Below the pieces are notes generated by a model, which was not told the DNA's origin, searched no databases, and saw only the letters and a program-made list of their open reading frames with translations. Below are positions 2,602-54,711 of a stretch of DNA of 58,034 nt, one piece after another. Made by a program: the position numbers and the translations under genes. Position 1 is the stretch's first letter, and each line of letters starts with the position of its first letter. Source of the stretch: a virus; the IMG/VR virus record IMGVR_UViG_3300029337_000010, positions 1 to 58,034 of that record, one strand, 5' to 3'.

Positions 2602-4317
2602 TCATGCGAACCGGAGCTGTCCGGTCTGCTCTGCTTCTATCTGCATGTTTGGCATACGTTCCGCTACGCACAGTTCCGAAAGATTTGCTCTGACCAGCGC
2701 TGCCGGTATCGGCGGACACACTGCATTGCCGCAGCGGCGCACCTGTTCGCTCCGCGGATACGTCTTGCCGGTATAATCATGGTCGATTATGTAATCCTCT
2801 GGAAAACCCTGGCATCCATACAACTCCCGTGGCTCCAACATCCGCAGTCCGATGTCCGCTATCTGATAATCTACGCCATTGATGGTTACCAGTCCGAATC
2901 TGTCCTGCGCCGTCACGGTGTCCAACGGTGCCTTTATATCCTGTCCAGTTCCCTGTCCATAATATTTGATTAAAAAAGCTCTCACCTCTCCGAAATGACC
3001 GTCTCCTGCTGTGATTGTCGGAATTGGCTCTTTTACATCCCTTCCATCACAATGATTATTCATCTGAATAAGGTTTACTGCACACATAGCGTTTCTTTCA
3101 AGTGTCGTAATGGTGTGCAATGGCTCTTTAATGTCAGAGCCGTTTCCCTGATAATTTCCGCCATAATACTTTTGGATGAATGACGTGACCAGTCCATATC
3201 TGTTCGATCCGTCCACCGTCATTATAGGGTCTTCAATCGTCTGCCCCCGAACTTCTCCCTGCGCCGTTTCAGAATGGTACTGGATAAGTGTCGGTGTCAT
3301 AAGCATATGCTGATTATTTGCCGTTATGGTGTGTACCGGCTCGCGCATATCACTTCCAAAATGGTTTTCTCTGTTTACTGATAGGTATGGTGCCAATTTA
3401 GGCTCACACAGATAATGCTTTCCGCTCCCCACAATAGTCGGCAATGGCTTTTCGATGTCGTGAACTCTAGGCGCCTGTCCTTTCCTCTCCCCGTACCCAA
3501 TAGGAACAATAAACGGTTCCGGGTTGTCCAGCACAAACTTTTTCAGTCCTCGTGCTATTCTCTCCATCGTCTTCGGTGCCAGCGGACGTACTGCCCGGAT
3601 CCCGTATTTCTCTTTGATTTCCTCGGACGTATCAAAAATGGACGGACATGGAAGAGAAAAGTCAAGCTGCGTGTATGCTCCCACATACGGTTTCAGCAGC
3701 CCAGCCTTGACCTCGTCACTGTCTGCCGGTGCGTGTGTCGGCTCTGGCCAGACTATCGGCTTACCATCACACCGCGCGATCATGAAGAATCGTTTGCGCA
3801 TGGTCGGCGCTCCATAATCAGCCGCAACCAACTCCCGGAACTCTACCTCATAGCCTAAATCTGTGAGTTGCTGAACAAACTTCCGAAATGTTTCGCCCTG
3901 TTTGCTCTTGATCGGATGGTGCCGCCGCCCAAGAGGTCCCCAAGTTTTAAATTCCTCCACATTCTCCAGCATGATGACTCTCGGTCGTACCAGTCCCGCC
4001 CATCGGCAGGCTACCCACGCAAGACCACGGATATTCTTATCTTTTGGCTTGCCACCCTTTGCTTTGCTAAAATGTTTGCAGTCCGGTGAGAACCAGGCAA
4101 GTCCGACCGGATGCCCGTTGCACGCTTTTACCGGATCGACCGCCCACACGTTTTCACAGTAATGCTTCGTATTCGGATGGTTCGCCTTGTGCATCTTGAT
4201 AGCTTCTGGATCATGGTTGATGGCTATATCAACACTGTATCCGGTTGCCATTTCTATACCAGTGGAAGCGCCGCCCCCACCGGCAAAGTTATCTACTATC
4301 AATTCTCCGTTTATCAT
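2602..4317 (-). CDS. DNA (cytosine-5) methyltransferase with multiple tandem target-recognition modules
   Basis: Motif I is DNFAGGGG, motif IV is SPDCKHFS, motif VI is MLENVEEF, and the C-terminal motifs are CQGFPEDY and GNAVCPP. About 380 aa between motif VI and the CQGFPEDY motif hold 6 repeats of P-x-x-T-(I/V)-(T/V)...(Y/H)... Confidence 0.9.
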   Translation of the reverse strand: MINGELIVDNFAGGGGASTGIEMATGYSVDIAINHDPEAIKMHKANHPNTKHYCENVWAVDPVKACNGHPVGLAWFSPDCKHFSKAKGGKPKDKNIRGLAWVACRWAGLVRPRVIMLENVEEFKTWGPLGRRHHPIKSKQGETFRKFVQQLTDLGYEVEFRELVAADYGAPTMRKRFFMIARCDGKPIVWPEPTHAPADSDEVKAGLLKPYVGAYTQLDFSLPCPSIFDTSEEIKEKYGIRAVRPLAPKTMERIARGLKKFVLDNPEPFIVPIGYGERKGQAPRVHDIEKPLPTIVGSGKHYLCEPKLAPYLSVNRENHFGSDMREPVHTITANNQHMLMTPTLIQYHSETAQGEVRGQTIEDPIMTVDGSNRYGLVTSFIQKYYGGNYQGNGSDIKEPLHTITTLERNAMCAVNLIQMNNHCDGRDVKEPIPTITAGDGHFGEVRAFLIKYYGQGTGQDIKAPLDTVTAQDRFGLVTINGVDYQIADIGLRMLEPRELYGCQGFPEDYIIDHDYTGKTYPRSEQVRRCGNAVCPPIPAALVRANLSELCVAERMPNMQIEAEQTGQLRFA

Positions 4318-4672: not shown

Positions 4673-4745
4673 CTTGGCATAGCTCAGTGGATAGAGCGCG
4701 CCTCCTATAAAGGCATGGTCGTGGGTTCGAGTCCCACTGCCCCTG
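4673..4745 (+). tRNA. tRNA-like gene with anticodon loop CCUAUAA (UAU, Ile-type) and a defective acceptor stem
   Basis: The D arm (GCTCAGTGGATAGAGC) and T arm (GTGGGTTCGAGTCCCAC) are canonical. Only 4 of 7 acceptor pairs form (GGCA/TGCC). Position 33 is C. It is opposite in strand to all its neighbours. Confidence 0.6.
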
Positions 4746-4777: not shown

Positions 4778-5995
4778 TCACATTTCATCTAATGGAAGTG
4801 AAATCTGCCCCTTACAGTTACCACCGATTGCGGACGGATCCCATCCAACTCCAATGTAATCAAGTACTTTCGCCCATCCATAATCATTCCCGTCTTTATC
4901 CCTGCACATGTGGAACATAAGATAATCCCACTCTTTTGGGTTGCTCTCATGCAACAGATCAAACCGATGCGGTCTCTTTTCCATGTGGATTCCAAACCCG
5001 CACATACTGCATCCGGTACGCTGAGCCTTAGTTGTGTAAAGCGTCCCATCTGGCTTTTTCTCAATCGTTCCGTAGATCTCCGGGATAATGCTGTCTGGCA
5101 TTTCAAAACTTTGAGATAATCTTCCTTCTTTCAAAAGCTTCTCATGATATTTTTCTTTCAGTTCTCCTTTCCACAACTCATCCATTTCCAGTGCAAGCTT
5201 TAAAATGTCCTGCCTATGAAAGATTGCGAATGGTGCTGATCTGATCGTGGATGCTCCAAAGTAATTACATCCGTTCATCCGTAGGCTCTTGGCACGTCTG
5301 CCGCCTTCAGATGCCATCAGTCCCAGATATGGCACGCTGTTGTGTTCTTTTCCCCAATTATCACAGTTCTTTTCTTTGAGGTAATAGCAGCATTTAGCAG
5401 ATACAAGGAAGTCTGGCTTCTGGAAATCACACCCTTCATTTTCGTTCTCATATCCACCGAACAGCTTTAACCATCGTTGATTCAACTGCATTTTGGAGTT
5501 TTTCTGCCATCCGCCATATTCTCCGGTTTCTCCGGTTATGATCGCATGACGGACAGTTTTATTCTTCTCGCTCGGATTTTGCAAAAGTTCTATCTTCCCG
5601 GCAACCTCTTTTGAAATGACCGGAAACCCAAATTCCTGTATAACTCTTGCTTTTGTCCAATAAGTACCATCATCTCTTTTCAGTGGTGGCACATTGATGA
5701 TTCCAAGTGCTTTATGCACTCTCTGAATACTCTTGTCTTCCAGTGTAGATGCACTGACTCCTGGTGCGTCAATTCCGCATACCTCATGCAAAAAGAGGTA
5801 CAAGACTATACTGTCAAGTCCACCGACCGAAACATGGTAATTGAGCAATCTTCCGCCACATTCATTTGCGAACTCTTCTGCTCGTATTTGAGCATATTTT
5901 CTTTTAAATTCATATGGCTGCTTCTCTTTCTGCATAAAAGATGCTATCTTTTCGTATGCTCCGATTCGCTCCATACGTTCTTTTACTGATTCCAT
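4778..5995 (-). CDS. PAPS-reductase-family (DndC/IbrA-like) protein
   Basis: 405 aa. The N-terminal segment HVSVGGLDSIVLYLFL is a PP-loop-like SGGxDS. The C-terminal half is cysteine-rich (CSMCGFGIH). Confidence 0.7.
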   Translation of the reverse strand: MESVKERMERIGAYEKIASFMQKEKQPYEFKRKYAQIRAEEFANECGGRLLNYHVSVGGLDSIVLYLFLHEVCGIDAPGVSASTLEDKSIQRVHKALGIINVPPLKRDDGTYWTKARVIQEFGFPVISKEVAGKIELLQNPSEKNKTVRHAIITGETGEYGGWQKNSKMQLNQRWLKLFGGYENENEGCDFQKPDFLVSAKCCYYLKEKNCDNWGKEHNSVPYLGLMASEGGRRAKSLRMNGCNYFGASTIRSAPFAIFHRQDILKLALEMDELWKGELKEKYHEKLLKEGRLSQSFEMPDSIIPEIYGTIEKKPDGTLYTTKAQRTGCSMCGFGIHMEKRPHRFDLLHESNPKEWDYLMFHMCRDKDGNDYGWAKVLDYIGVGWDPSAIGGNCKGQISLPLDEM

Positions 5996-50442: not shown

Positions 50443-50845
50443 TTTTGTGCCTTGTATGTCAATAGTTTTTTGTGCCTTATCTCAGAATTTTTTCATCGTG
50501 TTCCAGTTTCTCCGCTACCGCTAACTTGATAAAATCGTTTGCGCTCTTATACCCCAGCCTTTCAATGCGTTCTTTGGTGCCTTTGGAAAACCTGCAATTA
50601 ACTCGCTCAAACTTATCGTCATACTTATATATTGCACGCCTTTTTGCTTCGCTTGTTTTATGTTCCATTTAACTTACCACCTTCCTATATTCTTTTTGTA
50701 TATTATATCCTTTTGTGCCTTGTATGTCAATATTGATTCGTTCTCTTGTTATGGTTTTTGTGCCTTGTATGTTTTTCACAATGTATTGCTATTTTTGTGC
50801 CTTGTATTTCGTGTATTATTACTATTGTTTTTGTGCCTTGCATAT
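50443..50845 (+). repeat. Six same-orientation iterons TTTTGTGCCTT(G/A)(T/C)AT.. flanking the RHH gene
   Basis: Copies start at 50443, 50468, 50711, 50756, 50793 and 50829. Copies 1 and 3 are identical over 22 bp. Confidence 0.9.
50477..50668 (-). CDS. Ribbon-helix-helix (Arc/CopG-type) regulator
   Basis: 63 aa. ERVNCRFSKGTKERIERLGYKSANDFIKLAV fits a beta strand followed by two helices. Confidence 0.6.
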   Translation of the reverse strand: MEHKTSEAKRRAIYKYDDKFERVNCRFSKGTKERIERLGYKSANDFIKLAVAEKLEHDEKILR

Positions 50846-50890
50846 ACTATAATACAACTATCAAATGAAGCACGAAAGAGAGGAACGAAC

Positions 50891-51226
50891 ATGAAAGATT
50901 ATACAAAGTTTATGAAATGGGCAGTTGTTTACATAACCGACAGAAAAGGACAGGACGACAGGAAGAGCAAAGTTAAAGTTGAAGCTCTTTTCAGTTCTCC
51001 AGTACAGGCAGAGGATAATTACATCATCCGCAACCAAGAAATTAAGCGATATATCCTCCATGTGGATGATTTAGAAGAGTTTGAAACAGTGTACAATCAG
51101 TTGCAAGATTTAAGGGAAAAATATGGAGAATATGCAATCTTCCACGTTAAAGACCTTAATCTTAGTTGTGATAAGGAAAACAAATGGCGCGAGATATTAA
51201 AAGTATATACAAGCATTGACTTTTAG
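50891..51226 (+). CDS. Hypothetical protein, first gene of the plus-strand operon
   Basis: ATG at 50891 preceded by GAAAGAGAGGAA. 111 aa. Confidence 0.55.
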   Translation: MKDYTKFMKWAVVYITDRKGQDDRKSKVKVEALFSSPVQAEDNYIIRNQEIKRYILHVDDLEEFETVYNQLQDLREKYGEYAIFHVKDLNLSCDKENKWREILKVYTSIDF

Positions 51227-51303
51227 CCGAAACGCTCCTATCTGGAGCGTCAGCCGCGGGATGGTCTCCCGGCTCTGATGATGGCAGACCAGAAAGGAAA
51301 TAC

Positions 51304-51540
51304 ATGCGGAAAGAATTTATAAAAAATGTTTTAGATGTTGAAGTAAATGGATTTGCTTGCAAAGTAAGGTACATTGTTAGAGCAATGTATAACGTTATCG
51401 ATGATGACGGTTTCGCAACGATTGAGCAAAAAGTCATTGAGGATGTGACGCTATCTGATCAGGAGATCGAAAAAGAGGGCGGAGCATCTAAGGTATTGGA
51501 AGATCTTAAAGAGTGCTATGCACCGTTGTGTTGCAATTAG
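51304..51540 (+). CDS. Hypothetical protein
   Basis: 78-aa ORF with RBS AGAAAGGAAA. Confidence 0.5.
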   Translation: MRKEFIKNVLDVEVNGFACKVRYIVRAMYNVIDDDGFATIEQKVIEDVTLSDQEIEKEGGASKVLEDLKECYAPLCCN

Positions 51541-51586
51541 TCAAAAGCAGCCCGCCCCGGAGGTTACGAGGGCAGAAAGGGAAAAT

Positions 51587-51748
51587 ATGAAGAACTGGAC
51601 AATAGAACAATTATATGATCTTTGGAGAGGTCGCGGATATACAAAAAAAGAAGCGCAGGCGAAAGCTGAAAAGGATTACAAAGAAATGCACCGGAAGAAA
51701 TCAGAAACAGAATGCCACCAGACCATGCAAGAAATGCTTTACAACTAA
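51587..51748 (+). CDS. Small hypothetical protein (53 aa)
   Basis: ATG preceded by GAAAGGGAAAA. Confidence 0.45.
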   Translation: MKNWTIEQLYDLWRGRGYTKKEAQAKAEKDYKEMHRKKSETECHQTMQEMLYN

Positions 51749-51834
51749 GTCGAAACCGCCCGCGCGGCGGTCTGCAGGAACTGCCCCACCTGCACCGATG
51801 AGACAGGGCGCACAATGAAAGGATGGTTGAGCAT

Positions 51835-52005
51835 ATGAACAAATTAGAAGAAGCCCAAAAAGCATTTTTGAAAGTTAGGAATTATTTATTGAAAAATCAA
51901 GAAGATTTTGCACTCGCAAGGGCATATAAAAAGCCTTGGAAGTGGTACATGGAACACACTGAGAAAGAAGCTATTGAGATTTTGAGAAAAGAAGTTAACG
52001 CATAG
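51835..52005 (+). CDS. Small hypothetical protein (56 aa)
   Basis: ATG preceded by AAAGGATGG. Confidence 0.45.
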   Translation: MNKLEEAQKAFLKVRNYLLKNQEDFALARAYKKPWKWYMEHTEKEAIEILRKEVNA

Positions 52006-52021
52006 AAAGGATGGTTAAATT

Positions 52022-52198
52022 ATGGAATTTACGGGAAACTTACAAACAAAAAAAGACGACGCAAAAAGCGCGTACATTAAAGCGCGGAGCGAATGGGCAG
52101 ACACCAGAACCGCCGAAAACATCAAAGGTGATCCCGAAAAGTGGCGCGCCCTTTGTGATCGGAAAATGGATTGTATGAGATTGGGTGTTATCATTTAA
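52022..52198 (+). CDS. Small hypothetical protein (58 aa, below the ORF-track cutoff)
   Basis: ATG preceded by AAAGGATGG. Translation begins MEFTGNLQTKKDDAKSAYIKARSEW... Confidence 0.45.
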   Translation: MEFTGNLQTKKDDAKSAYIKARSEWADTRTAENIKGDPEKWRALCDRKMDCMRLGVII

Positions 52199-52221
52199 GC
52201 AAAGTGCAGGCGGTGCAATGT

Positions 52222-52250
52222 TCCGGGGGAATTGCCCCCGGATTGCTTTT
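52222..52250 (+). terminator. Rho-independent terminator of the plus-strand operon
   Basis: TCCGGGGG-AATTG-CCCCCGGA followed by TTGCTTTTA. Confidence 0.8.
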
Positions 52251-52384
52251 ATCAATATGCCGTGGAGTACAGCACGCAAAAAAGCGTGCAAATATGCGTG
52301 TTATCATTAGCACTCTAGGGGATTTCCTGGCGTGCTGTGGATTTTCTGGTTGTACTTGTTGCCACAGAGCAGCCGCGGTGCACA

Positions 52385-52414
52385 TTGACATTTTGGCGAG
52401 TTTGTGCATATAAT
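52385..52414 (+). promoter_or_regulatory. Strong plus-strand promoter TTGACA-N18-TATAAT with a TTTGTGC motif over its -10
   Basis: TTGACA at 52385-52390 and TATAAT at 52409-52414. No credible ORF lies downstream. Confidence 0.65.
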
Positions 52415-52589
52415 GACTTGCAGGCATGTGCGCGCCTGTATAATTGCAATGTCATGTAGACGTTTGCTTTATTTGTTGTACTCATTTTGCGCATTTGTGC
52501 GGATGTTTCCGCGCCTGCATTATTTCAGCGCTTCCAAACGGGCGACGGCACATAGCAAGATCAAGTACGACCAGATCATGGATGAGTGC

Positions 52590-52830
52590 AATCTGAACTT
52601 GCACTTACAAAAAAGTTTTAAAAAAATTTTGCAAAAATCTGAACAAAATTCTCAAAATCTCAAAAACGGTTTTTTGTGCCGAAATCTGAACCTAGGGGGG
52701 TATCAAATTTTTTCCGAATATCTGGGCGAAAATTTCAAAAATTTTTTAAAAATTAAAAACCGAAAATCTTTTTCCAAATCTTAAGGTAGGGGGGATCGAA
52801 AATTTTTCTGAAAGTTTTCCGAAGTAAAAA
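52590..52830. repeat. AT-rich repeat region: AATCTGAAC x3 and TAGGGGGG(T)ATC..TTTTT(C)CxGAA x2
   Basis: AATCTGAAC occurs near 52592, 52637 and 52681. TAGGGGGG occurs near 52694 and 52787. TTTTTTGTGCC occurs at about 52664. Confidence 0.7.
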
Positions 52831-52941
52831 GCAAAGCTTTTGCAGTATAATCGCTTTTGTTTAATTCATCTATCAATTTCTCTCTTGTCATCCCAGGGTT
52901 TGTCTTCTGAACGTAATGAAGTAAATCGTCTATTTTGTCCA

Positions 52942-53337: not shown

Positions 53338-53976
53338 TTATTCTTCAATAAGTAGGTAATTAATGTATCTTGTCGCCGTATCGTTGAGGTCTCTATTGAA
53401 ATCAAGCAGATCAAGAGCGTATTCCGGTGGATATCCATAACTGGCGTAATATGCCTTTTCGATTGCGCGTAAGTTGTGCAGATCCGATAATTCCACTAGA
53501 ATCTTGTGATATAAAAATTTTCGAGTCCAACCAAACCGTTCTAGGATTATACTTAACTTCCAGTTGTTCTTTGAAAACCATGTTTCCGTTTCATGTTTCC
53601 ATCGAATCTCCCAGTGCTCAAACGGGTCTTTCTCCGTAATTGCAGGCTGCGGTTTTTTCAGCGCTTGTTCCATGTCGTGAAAGCGATTGATGTATTGAGC
53701 TGTGAAAGCCGTTCCCTTTGCTCCGGTCAGCTTGTGGGCGATAAATTCGCAACCTTTCTTGGTAATGTCGTAGCATGGACAACTTTTTTTCTGCTCTGTA
53801 CAATATGTGCTTTCTATGAAGAAATCGGAAAAGTCAATATTTACTTCTCCTAATTGCTTACAGTATCGCCGGATATCTTTTAATAAATTGGCGTGTGTCT
53901 TTCCAACCATTTCCGCGACTTCCATACTGGTTAGAGTTTGTTCTAATTGCTTCATCTGAATATCATTCATCAGCAA
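53338..53976 (-). CDS. Rha-family phage regulatory protein
   Basis: 212 aa. TSMEVAEMVGKTHANLLKDIRRY...ITKKGCEFIAHKLTGAKGTAFTAQYINRFHDME matches the Rha N-domain pattern. Confidence 0.8.
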   Translation of the reverse strand: MLMNDIQMKQLEQTLTSMEVAEMVGKTHANLLKDIRRYCKQLGEVNIDFSDFFIESTYCTEQKKSCPCYDITKKGCEFIAHKLTGAKGTAFTAQYINRFHDMEQALKKPQPAITEKDPFEHWEIRWKHETETWFSKNNWKLSIILERFGWTRKFLYHKILVELSDLHNLRAIEKAYYASYGYPPEYALDLLDFNRDLNDTATRYINYLLIEE

Positions 53977-54478: not shown

Positions 54479-54652
54479 TTATTTTTTTTGACCTTTTAGC
54501 TTTTCAATCCCCGCCCTTATAAGTTCTAATATGGAATATCCACTTTCTGATGAAAATTTCATAATTTCATCTTTTTCTTGCTTCGATACTCGAACATAAA
54601 GTCTTTCATTCATAGGATTGTCAACTTTAGGTCTGCCTGTGCGTGGAGACAT
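54479..54652 (-). CDS. Ribbon-helix-helix (CopG-type) regulator
   Basis: Start at MSPRTGRPKVDNPMNERLYVRVSKQEKDEI... The pattern GRPK...R.YVRVS..E is typical of RHH N termini. Confidence 0.65.
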   Translation of the reverse strand: MSPRTGRPKVDNPMNERLYVRVSKQEKDEIMKFSSESGYSILELIRAGIEKLKGQKK

Positions 54653-54670
54653 TCTCAGCACCTTCTTTCT

Positions 54671-54711
54671 GTACGCACATTTAATATATAATAGTACGCA
54701 CAAAAAGTCAA
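54671..54711 (-). promoter_or_regulatory. Promoter TTGACT-N17-TATATT bracketed by two TGTGCGTAC repeats
   Basis: The -35 is at 54706-54711 and the -10 at 54683-54688. The 9-mers are at 54671-54679 and 54694-54702, read on the minus strand. Confidence 0.65.

Follow-up and report, generated by a model that had tools for sequence, protein, structure and literature searches.

A predicted ribbon-helix-helix autorepressor and its six co-oriented sites amid swappable small genes of gut Lachnospiraceae phages

The ribbon-helix-helix (RHH) proteins Arc and Mnt of the immI region of phage P22 are small repressors that act at divergent promoters, and Arc shuts off a strong early promoter, its own included. 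Among plasmid regulators of the same fold, omega (pSM19035), ParG and CopG bind cooperatively, as dimers, to arrays of short non-palindromic repeats located in promoters. In the search for anti-defence genes of phages, the main handle is provided by the anti-CRISPR-associated (Aca) regulators. To our knowledge, until mid-2026 all Aca regulators were helix-turn-helix proteins, the RHH examples, Aca14 and AcrIE10, being recent and all from Proteobacteria, and we know of few anti-defence genes in the clade of phages that infect Lachnospiraceae. When examining a stretch of 58,034 nucleotides of viral DNA (IMG/VR record IMGVR_UViG_3300029337_000010, positions 1 to 58,034; hereafter, the window), we found that a 63-aa protein, denoted here RHH1, is encoded amid six co-oriented repeats that probably are its operators, so that RHH1 would act as a repressor at three promoters, including its own.

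Three characterised RHH repressors come closest to the arrangement described here. Aca14 of Pasteurella multocida is a 66-aa anti-CRISPR-associated RHH repressor with an N-terminal helix (bioRxiv 10.64898/2026.07.27.740549, July 2026). AcrIE10 is a bifunctional Acr-Aca protein, the N-terminal RHH domain of which represses its own acr promoter (PMC13530269). Finally, Reg576 (Reg_p576) is an RHH repressor of the establishment genes of the Bacillus plasmid p576 and of other clade II plasmids of the pLS20 family (PMC8708921).

The six repeats, TTTGTGCCTT(G/A), start at positions 50444, 50469, 50712, 50757, 50794 and 50830, all on the plus strand. With at most one mismatch allowed, the motif has 7 matches in the window against 1.8 expected, and in none of 100 shuffled sequences were 7 matches found. 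When read on the strand of the RHH1 gene, each repeat is an asymmetric site of 15-17 bp, AnATAyAAGGCACAAAA. On a position weight matrix derived from 132 distinct instances of the site in related loci, the six sites score 22-27 bits, and the runner-up anywhere in the window reaches 13.5 bits. The start-to-start spacings, 25, 243, 45, 37 and 36 bp, are irregular. The initial annotation of this DNA, made from the sequence alone, had reported six repeats in the same orientation, and these are real and are the only strong matches to the motif in the 58-kb window; the reported identity of copies 1 and 3 over 22 bp is confirmed as well, the common 22-mer being TTTTGTGCCTTGTATGTCAATA.

Three of the six sites each occupy the 17-bp spacer of one promoter of the sigma-70 type. 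The RHH1 gene itself (50477..50668, minus strand) is preceded by a promoter with 12/12 consensus positions, P_RHH (50702..50730, minus strand; TTGACA-17-TATAAT), followed by the ribosome-binding site GGAAGGTGG and then ATG. The spacer of P_RHH holds site D (copy 3; 50711..50727, minus strand; 27.2 bits), the predicted autoregulatory operator, where the family consensus reads TTGACatAtAAGGCACAAaa...tataat. Directly after the RHH1 stop codon lies P_down (50434..50462, minus strand; TTGACA-17-TATTAT; 11/12 consensus positions), a near-duplicate of P_RHH. Site F (copy 1; 50443..50459, minus strand; ACATACAAGGCACAAAA, 27.2 bits), which is conserved in related loci, is placed between the -35 element of P_down (TTGACA, 50462-50457) and its -10 element (TATTAT, 50439-50434). 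The two promoters have the identical 22-mer in common, so the identity of copies 1 and 3 reflects a duplicated promoter together with its operator. The third promoter, P_div (50825..50853, plus strand; TTGTTT-17-TATAAT), read from the sequence, combines a perfect -10 with a -35 that matches the consensus at 3 of 6 positions, and its family consensus retains TTgTT...TATAAT. Site A (copy 6; 50829..50845, minus strand; 23.7 bits) fits between TTGTTT (50825-50830) and TATAAT (50848-50853), and distant homologues are arranged alike. It had been suggested that this last copy overlaps the TATAAT; instead, it abuts the TATAAT, ending 2-4 bp before it, and lies within the spacer.

The other three sites, C, E and B, are located 45, 25 and 36 bp from D, F and A, respectively, upstream of the -35 of each promoter. 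Sites C (copy 4; 50756..50772, minus strand; 27.2 bits) and B (copy 5; 50793..50809, minus strand; 26.8 bits) appear to be auxiliary; the former is kept while the flanking DNA diverges, and the spacing between A and B is 35-36 bp in close relatives. Site E (copy 2; 50468..50484, minus strand; TGAGATAAGGCACAAAA, 22.0 bits) lies just upstream of the -35 of P_down and overlaps the stop codon of RHH1 (50477-50479), an overlap that persists in homologues with 40-49% identity, in the form TAA-TGCAC or TAA-CGCAC. Thus, of the two copies that had been placed just 3' of the RHH1 gene, copy 1 is indeed there and copy 2 is not wholly 3' of it. These site positions, like the conservation, covariation, cargo variability and AcrIC5 homology given below, are in silico results.

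The window is the genome of a temperate siphophage or a prophage, with genes for an integrase, terminase, portal, major head protein, tape measure and tail fibre, almost entirely on the minus strand. Close relatives are found on contigs of about 50-65 kb from human-gut metagenomes; the phages belong to the group with Lachnospiraceae hosts, and prophage copies of the RHH1 gene were found in the genomes of Lachnospiraceae and other Clostridia. A megablast search of the 49-55 kb segment against the INPHARED phages and the PLSDB plasmids yielded no match, and neither did tblastn searches of RHH1 against the INPHARED phages and the 72,556 PLSDB plasmids, so there is no cultured or annotated relative for comparison in these collections. 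The family is abundant: RHH1 has hundreds of close homologues, one homologue is present on at least about 1,000 contigs, and the family comprises 392 clusters at 50% identity.

The initial annotation had made its proposal dependent on the presence and conservation of the repeats in related elements. Indeed, among 73 distinct (non-identical) related regions, 57 show the same layout of four sites upstream and two sites downstream of the RHH1 gene in one orientation, and most of about 90 related phage loci share it, with variable flanking genes and variable DNA between the sites. In alignments, the sites stand out as conserved islands amid diverging DNA, and the information content of the 132 distinct instances is concentrated between -6 and +10, with almost none beyond. 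A scan of both strands of 90 unique related loci (794 kb) at a threshold of at least 15 bits placed all sites but one at the RHH1 gene and found none of more than 500 on the opposite strand. Thus, both in the window and in the related loci, the RHH1 sites are limited to a segment of about 400 bp that includes the gene itself.

The strongest evidence, which comes from comparison of sequences, is the covariation between the core of the site and the beta-strand with which RHH1 is predicted to read DNA. In homologues with 40-49% identity, the layout of four and two sites, the stop-codon overlap and the placement in the spacers are all kept and the core differs. Proteins with the strand R(V/I)NCR(F/L) are accompanied by the core AGGCAC (488 sites in 88 loci), those with RINVIF by ATGCAC (27 of 32 sites), and those with RLNIVF by ACGCAC (11 of 12 sites). 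Because the protein and the site change together, RHH1 and the sites most likely are a cognate pair. The changes may even amount to a simple, re-programmable recognition code, in which the strand residues C25 and R26 are paired with the third base of the AAGGCAC core, and the correspondence between G, T or C in the core and NCR, NVI or NIV in the strand offers a natural, testable model of RHH specificity.

The protein itself is supported, by structural modelling and profile comparison, as an RHH fold with an added N-terminal helix. An AlphaFold2 model built with a deep alignment (predicted local distance difference test score, pLDDT, of 88) has helices at residues 7-19, 31-37 and 43-62, with an extended segment (20-30) between the first two. 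This strand has no pairing partner, as would be anticipated for a monomer, and the strand-helix-helix topology is present. A first run with a shallow alignment was poor (pLDDT 66). Among 57 relatives, Pfam searches detected Arc in 10, with RHH_1, RHH_5, NikA-like, TacA1, HicB and ParG in others (best E-value 2.5e-5), and PHROGs 31631 and 13890 match RHH1. Comparison of the RHH1 family with Arc using hhalign gave a probability of 47% (E = 2e-4) in the expected register. In particular, the segment L-G-Y-K-S-A-N-D-F, which contains the turn at the start of helix B (G-x-S/T/N), aligns with GRSVNSEI of Arc, and G39, S42 and N44 are invariant or nearly so in close homologues. In a search of RHH1 against the PDB sequences with phmmer and hmmsearch, only chance matches were found.

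Taken with the positions of the sites, these comparisons suggest a simple scheme. Upon entry of the phage DNA, RHH1 would be absent, so the promoters would fire. As RHH1 accumulates, its dimers, possibly cooperating between paired sites, would occupy the spacers and exclude RNA polymerase at the three promoters, including that of RHH1. The outcome would be a self-limiting burst of accessory genes, followed by low, autoregulated expression in the lysogen. We infer the binding, repression, stoichiometry and timing in this scheme from the sequence comparisons. The circuit, in which a small autorepressor shuts off strong early promoters, is classical; this family and its site layout are new, and such regulators have not been previously described in this group of gut Lachnospiraceae phages.

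In its logic, this scheme is most closely matched, by analogy, by Reg576. That repressor acts at four strong promoters, including its own, through direct-repeat, non-palindromic operators, and RHH1 appears similar in having several promoters and direct repeats; the transient burst of entry genes followed by shut-off is the same as that proposed here. Reg576 resides on a conjugative plasmid, whereas RHH1 is encoded by a phage, and the operators of Reg576 are dual heptamers, TTATCCCnnTTATCCC, upstream of the -35 and downstream of the start site, whereas the RHH1 sites occur in the spacer. As a protein, RHH1 resembles Aca14, which is similarly small and likewise combines an N-terminal helix with an RHH domain. 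The hhalign comparison of the RHH1 family with Aca14 yielded a probability of 76% (E = 2e-5; 28% identity), with the helix, the strand and both following helices aligned, although the BLASTP match between RHH1 and Aca14 (HDR1349883.1 / WP_005725436.1) is not significant (E = 2.4). Aca14 represses its own and a neighbouring operon, both with acr or anti-defence genes, a role to which the predicted role of RHH1 may be likened. By contrast, the Aca14 operator is a 20-bp inverted repeat, TGTATATGTAAGCATATACA, that overlaps the -10, an arrangement not found among the six asymmetric, co-oriented RHH1 sites of 15-17 bp, which lie in spacers or upstream of the -35. Furthermore, aca14 follows acr in one operon, whereas the RHH1 gene precedes the cargo and has a promoter to itself, the cargo being placed on the duplicate and divergent promoters, and the hosts are Proteobacteria in one case and Lachnospiraceae in the other.

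AcrIE10 is alike in that an RHH domain represses an acr promoter, as predicted for RHH1, but in AcrIE10 this domain is fused to an Acr domain, the operator is an inverted repeat, and the protein is encoded on Klebsiella plasmids, so that it differs from RHH1 in each of these respects. Arc and Mnt are, like RHH1, small phage RHH proteins at divergent promoters. Unlike the RHH1 sites, their operators are palindromes of 21 bp and 17 bp, one per promoter, that are bound by tetramers; in addition, these proteins lack the N-terminal helix, and their cargo is fixed (the antirepressor Ant), whereas that of RHH1 consists of variable cassettes. The heptads bound by omega, ParG and CopG are contiguous and the RHH1 sites are not, and these regulators function together with ParA in partition or in copy-number control, whereas no such partner is found at RHH1. 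By analogy with omega and Reg576, we considered each RHH1 site as two tandem heptads (ATACAAG and GCACAAA, with ACAA in common) and dropped this reading because the pattern is broken in the distant operator variants ATAATGCACTTAT.

The first gene after P_down (49959..50339, minus strand), which is driven by this promoter, encodes an acidic protein of 126 aa (pI 4.3), the C-terminal half of which is a homologue of AcrIC5 (Pfam PF22147, E = 7e-20; phmmer match to the AcrIC5 structure 7YHR in PDB, E = 3e-7). For one AcrIC5 homologue, encoded by a gut prophage, inhibition of type I-C has been validated (PMC10651486). The next gene (49375..49893, minus strand) codes for a Cys-rich protein of 172 aa with weak HNH-like similarity (PHROGs 1271, E = 1e-4) and probably shares a transcript with the AcrIC5-like gene, ending at a terminator-like hairpin at 49336-49362. 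P_div faces an operon of five genes on the plus strand (50891..52198; open reading frames 50891-51226, 51304-51540, 51587-51748, 51835-52005 and 52022-52198), with a terminator at 52222-52242; none of the five products has a match in Pfam, PHROGs or NCBIfam, and this slot is highly variable among relatives. A survey of about 92 related loci found 85 gene architectures. The first downstream slot is occupied by proteins of 24 clusters and the first divergent slot by proteins of 19, and the median cargo length is 80 aa. Recognisable cargo in relatives includes AcrIC5, ANT/ORF6N antirepressors, a ParE toxin, DUF4352 and LPD29; genes with the AcrIC5 domain follow RHH1 also in the loci L001, L002 and L005. 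In three related phages (L054, 2775-3476, minus strand; L049; L055), the last open reading frame called in the divergent gene string that RHH1 would control encodes a lone Cas5b homologue of 233 aa (TIGR01895, E = 1e-20, full length, below the curated cut-off; Pfam Cas_Cas5d, E = 6e-4), which may be a phage-borne decoy of a Cas subunit.

A conserved regulator with its promoters amid swappable small genes is, by analogy, the pattern of anti-defence loci. Like the functionally defined Aca regulators, RHH1 appears to be a DNA-binding regulator that adjoins an acr-like gene, and sites E and F, its predicted cognate sites, flank and fill the promoter of that gene. The controlled genes probably are a swappable set that is at least partly anti-defence, in which case RHH1 would be an Aca-like regulator. 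For the anti-defence role of the cargo, taken separately, we consider the chances to be about even.

Several points weigh against the interpretation of the repeats as RHH1 operators and of the cargo as anti-defence genes. The support for the operators and for repression is wholly comparative. RHH1 itself has no significant Pfam match (E <= 0.01), and Foldseek searches of both monomer models against PDB found no match, which probably reflects the limitations of a query that is a 63-aa monomer of an obligate dimer. The -35 of P_div is weak, and this promoter was missed by the promoter scan because the -35 falls below the threshold of the scan. Sites B, C and E have no explained role in the proposed scheme, and most characterised RHH operators are symmetric or contiguous repeats, unlike the asymmetric sites described here. 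As for the cargo, a single gene in the window, the activity of which is predicted, has any link to anti-defence, and most of the cargo has no known function. In some relatives, the cargo consists of antirepressor, toxin-antitoxin or membrane-protein genes, so 'anti-defence' may be too narrow a description.

These observations on the cargo bear on the possibility that the same RHH autorepressor mechanism serves another role, that of an immI-like or general early-gene switch that governs antirepressors, the choice between lysis and lysogeny, or host takeover, as Arc and Mnt do in P22. Such a role would fit the ANT/ORF6N antirepressor gene that lies directly downstream of RHH1 in some relatives (locus L014), the Rha-family gene and second RHH repressor that are found 3-4 kb away in the window, and the large share of cargo without known function. 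However, the cargo, with its 24 and 19 clusters in two adjacent slots, is too varied for one dedicated function, the downstream gene in the window itself encodes an AcrIC5 homologue and not an antirepressor, and the lone Cas5b homologue is encoded in the same operon position in relatives; we therefore regard this scenario as rather unlikely. The variety of the cargo also tells against RHH1 being the antitoxin of a type II toxin-antitoxin pair, with the repeats as its autoregulatory operator. RHH antitoxins do autoregulate their operons, one homologue is named 'MAG TPA: antitoxin' in one public record, and some relatives match the antitoxin families TacA1 and HicB. Nevertheless, there is no conserved partner, as the gene after RHH1 belongs to 24 unrelated clusters; this gene has its own promoter and is separated from RHH1 instead of overlapping it; the would-be partner in the window is the acidic AcrIC5-like protein; and ParE toxins occur in one cargo cluster only, beside an antitoxin-like neighbour of their own. 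An antitoxin function of RHH1 thus seems very improbable.

As an alternative to a regulon, the initial annotation had offered a plasmid-style iteron array, centromere or origin. In that case, the repeats would be bound by Rep or by RHH1 acting in the manner of ParG or omega, and would serve in replication or partition. Several repeats in the same orientation around a small RHH gene do bring such elements to mind, omega and ParG are RHH centromere-binding proteins, and one relative of RHH1 has a weak match to ParG (E = 0.06). Against this stand the absence of Rep, ParA and ParM genes among the neighbours scanned and beside RHH1 in related loci, where the neighbours are variable small genes, the lack of any ParA/CbiA match among the open reading frames scanned in the 49.3-57.7 kb segment, the spacing that forms no regular array, the coincidence of the sites with promoter spacers, and the lack of RHH1 homologues on the PLSDB plasmids; the GC skew, which could have pointed to an origin, merely tracks the direction of transcription. 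We accordingly consider this alternative to be highly improbable. The interpretation of the six repeats as operators through which RHH1 represses three promoters, to which we return, appears quite likely.

If so, the recognisable operator signature of the RHH1 family provides a search handle in human-gut Lachnospiraceae phages, and the family flags at least 160 mostly unknown families of small proteins that are candidate counter-defence or host-takeover genes. A further reading goes beyond this. Tentatively, and with distinctly less confidence, RHH1 and its six co-oriented, asymmetric sites might be seen as a portable cassette of regulator, operators and promoters, the presence of which would indicate a hypervariable hotspot of anti-defence genes in Lachnospiraceae phages. 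Should that be the case, the more than 160 cargo families, including the AcrIC5-like proteins, the lone Cas5b and the operons punctuated by hammerhead ribozymes (see below), would be largely undiscovered counter-defence genes that can be found by guilt by association. Conceivably, the strict co-orientation and the presence of site clusters on both sides of RHH1 could also stem from a nucleoprotein complex that assembles directionally or from a loop with the gene inside it; if either is true, this would be an operator grammar that has not been described for RHH or Aca regulators.

The annotation had further proposed that a small regulon, wired by RHH repressors and reaching three more promoters, controls the whole 49.3-54.8 kb island. 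The part of this proposal that concerns the RHH1 operators is upheld by the spacer positions, the layout shared by 57 of 73 regions and the covariation; the extension to the other promoters and to the whole island is not. The additional TTTGTGC sequences do exist, but their number is at the chance level: the window contains 20 copies of this 7-mer where 14.65 are expected, a count that includes the six repeats. Matrix scores are negative (below 0 bits; ranks from 115 to 1166) for the copies at 52401, 52494, 52673 and 49084, which show no footprint of their own because the surrounding DNA is uniformly conserved among close relatives. The two copies of TGTGCGTAC at 54671-54702 are present as reported, but their motif is distinct from that of the six repeats. 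They belong to the promoter (TTGACT-17-TATATT) of a second RHH gene, RHH2 (54479-54652, minus strand; 57 aa; PHROGs 876, 'transcriptional repressor'), within a module that spans 54479-54711 on the minus strand, with one copy in the spacer and the other just after the -10. In RHH2 homologues with 27-42% identity, the repeat pair is altered (GGGCTACA, GGTGTGACA, TTTGTCATAACAAA and others) and its position is constant, so RHH2 appears to be a separate autoregulated module, the operator pair of which changes with the protein in relatives. RHH2 heads an operon that includes the Rha-family gene (53338-53976). A look-alike of the RHH2 operator, TGTGCATAC, with one mismatch, is located at 49086 in the spacer of the terS promoter and was discarded, given that relatives in which RHH2 is identical do not conserve it; with one mismatch allowed, the window holds 12 matches to the RHH2 operator against 7 expected, which is within chance.

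The operons next to RHH1 contain ribozyme and hairpin sequences. Between the first and second divergent genes, there is a full-length type II hammerhead ribozyme (RF02276, 67.6 bits, E = 7e-13; 51225-51293, plus strand), and between the third and fourth genes, a weaker match (51748-51812, plus strand; 28.4 bits, below the gathering score) with the core CCGAUGA instead of CUGAUGA. Hammerheads are present in the same operon of related phages (L017, 4409-4477, minus strand; L001, 2407-2476, minus strand), so the mRNA of the divergent operon probably is cut into pieces. The 5' untranslated region downstream of P_down contains small hairpins on the minus strand within 50378-50412, including GGCGAAAGCC (50403-50412) and GGGCAGCGCAAAAGCCGCCC (50378-50397). 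In relatives with other cargo, hairpins occupy the same place with different stems and, often, a GAAA loop (CAGCCGAAAGGCTG, CAGTTGAAAGACTG); these hairpins may be a conserved RNA element. Another hairpin (49916-49940, minus strand), with a stem of 8-9 bp (9 pairs in the terminator scan), is found 19 nt past the end of the AcrIC5-like gene, immediately ahead of the ribosome-binding site of the next gene. In a Bifidobacterium prophage, an RNA anti-CRISPR is located 11 nt after an AcrIC5 homologue (PMC10651486), and by analogy with RacrIC1 (PMC10651486), we considered such a role for the hairpin. We set this candidate aside, given that its tail is unlike the 3' end of type I-C repeats, ATTGAAA(C/T).

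In 32 loci, the gene after RHH1 encodes a 150-aa protein with an RHH domain of the HicB type. In the one such locus that was read (L060), an array of six ATGATATCA(C/T) repeats lies upstream of this gene as its own, so these phages appear to stack several RHH-operator modules.

Beyond the terminator of the plus-strand operon, about 600 bp of non-coding DNA (52200-52850) are conserved. This segment contains a perfect promoter (TTGACA-18-TATAAT; 52385-52414, plus strand) that is antisense towards the minus-strand genes. Downstream of this promoter are AT-rich repeats and a pair of G-rich units, AAATCTGAACCTAGGGGGGTATC and AAATCTTAAGGTAGGGGGGATCG, separated by about 95 bp. The segment has no Rfam match; it may encode an RNA, perhaps an antisense RNA, or serve as an origin.

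Near the integrase end of the window, there are genes for a DNA methyltransferase of 571 aa (2602-4317, minus strand) and a PAPS-reductase-like protein (4778-5995, minus strand), of kinds that the Aca14 preprint discusses among the anti-defence genes regulated by Aca proteins (bioRxiv 10.64898/2026.07.27.740549); the matrix scan of the window found no RHH1 sites near them. In related phages, a ROOL RNA (RF03087, 366 bits) adjoins the tRNA clusters (L051, 9333-9912; L058, 9859-10186), and none is found in the window. The window itself has three clustered tRNA genes (45768-47262, minus strand), which lie upstream of the terminase region, and one more at 4676-4741 on the plus strand.

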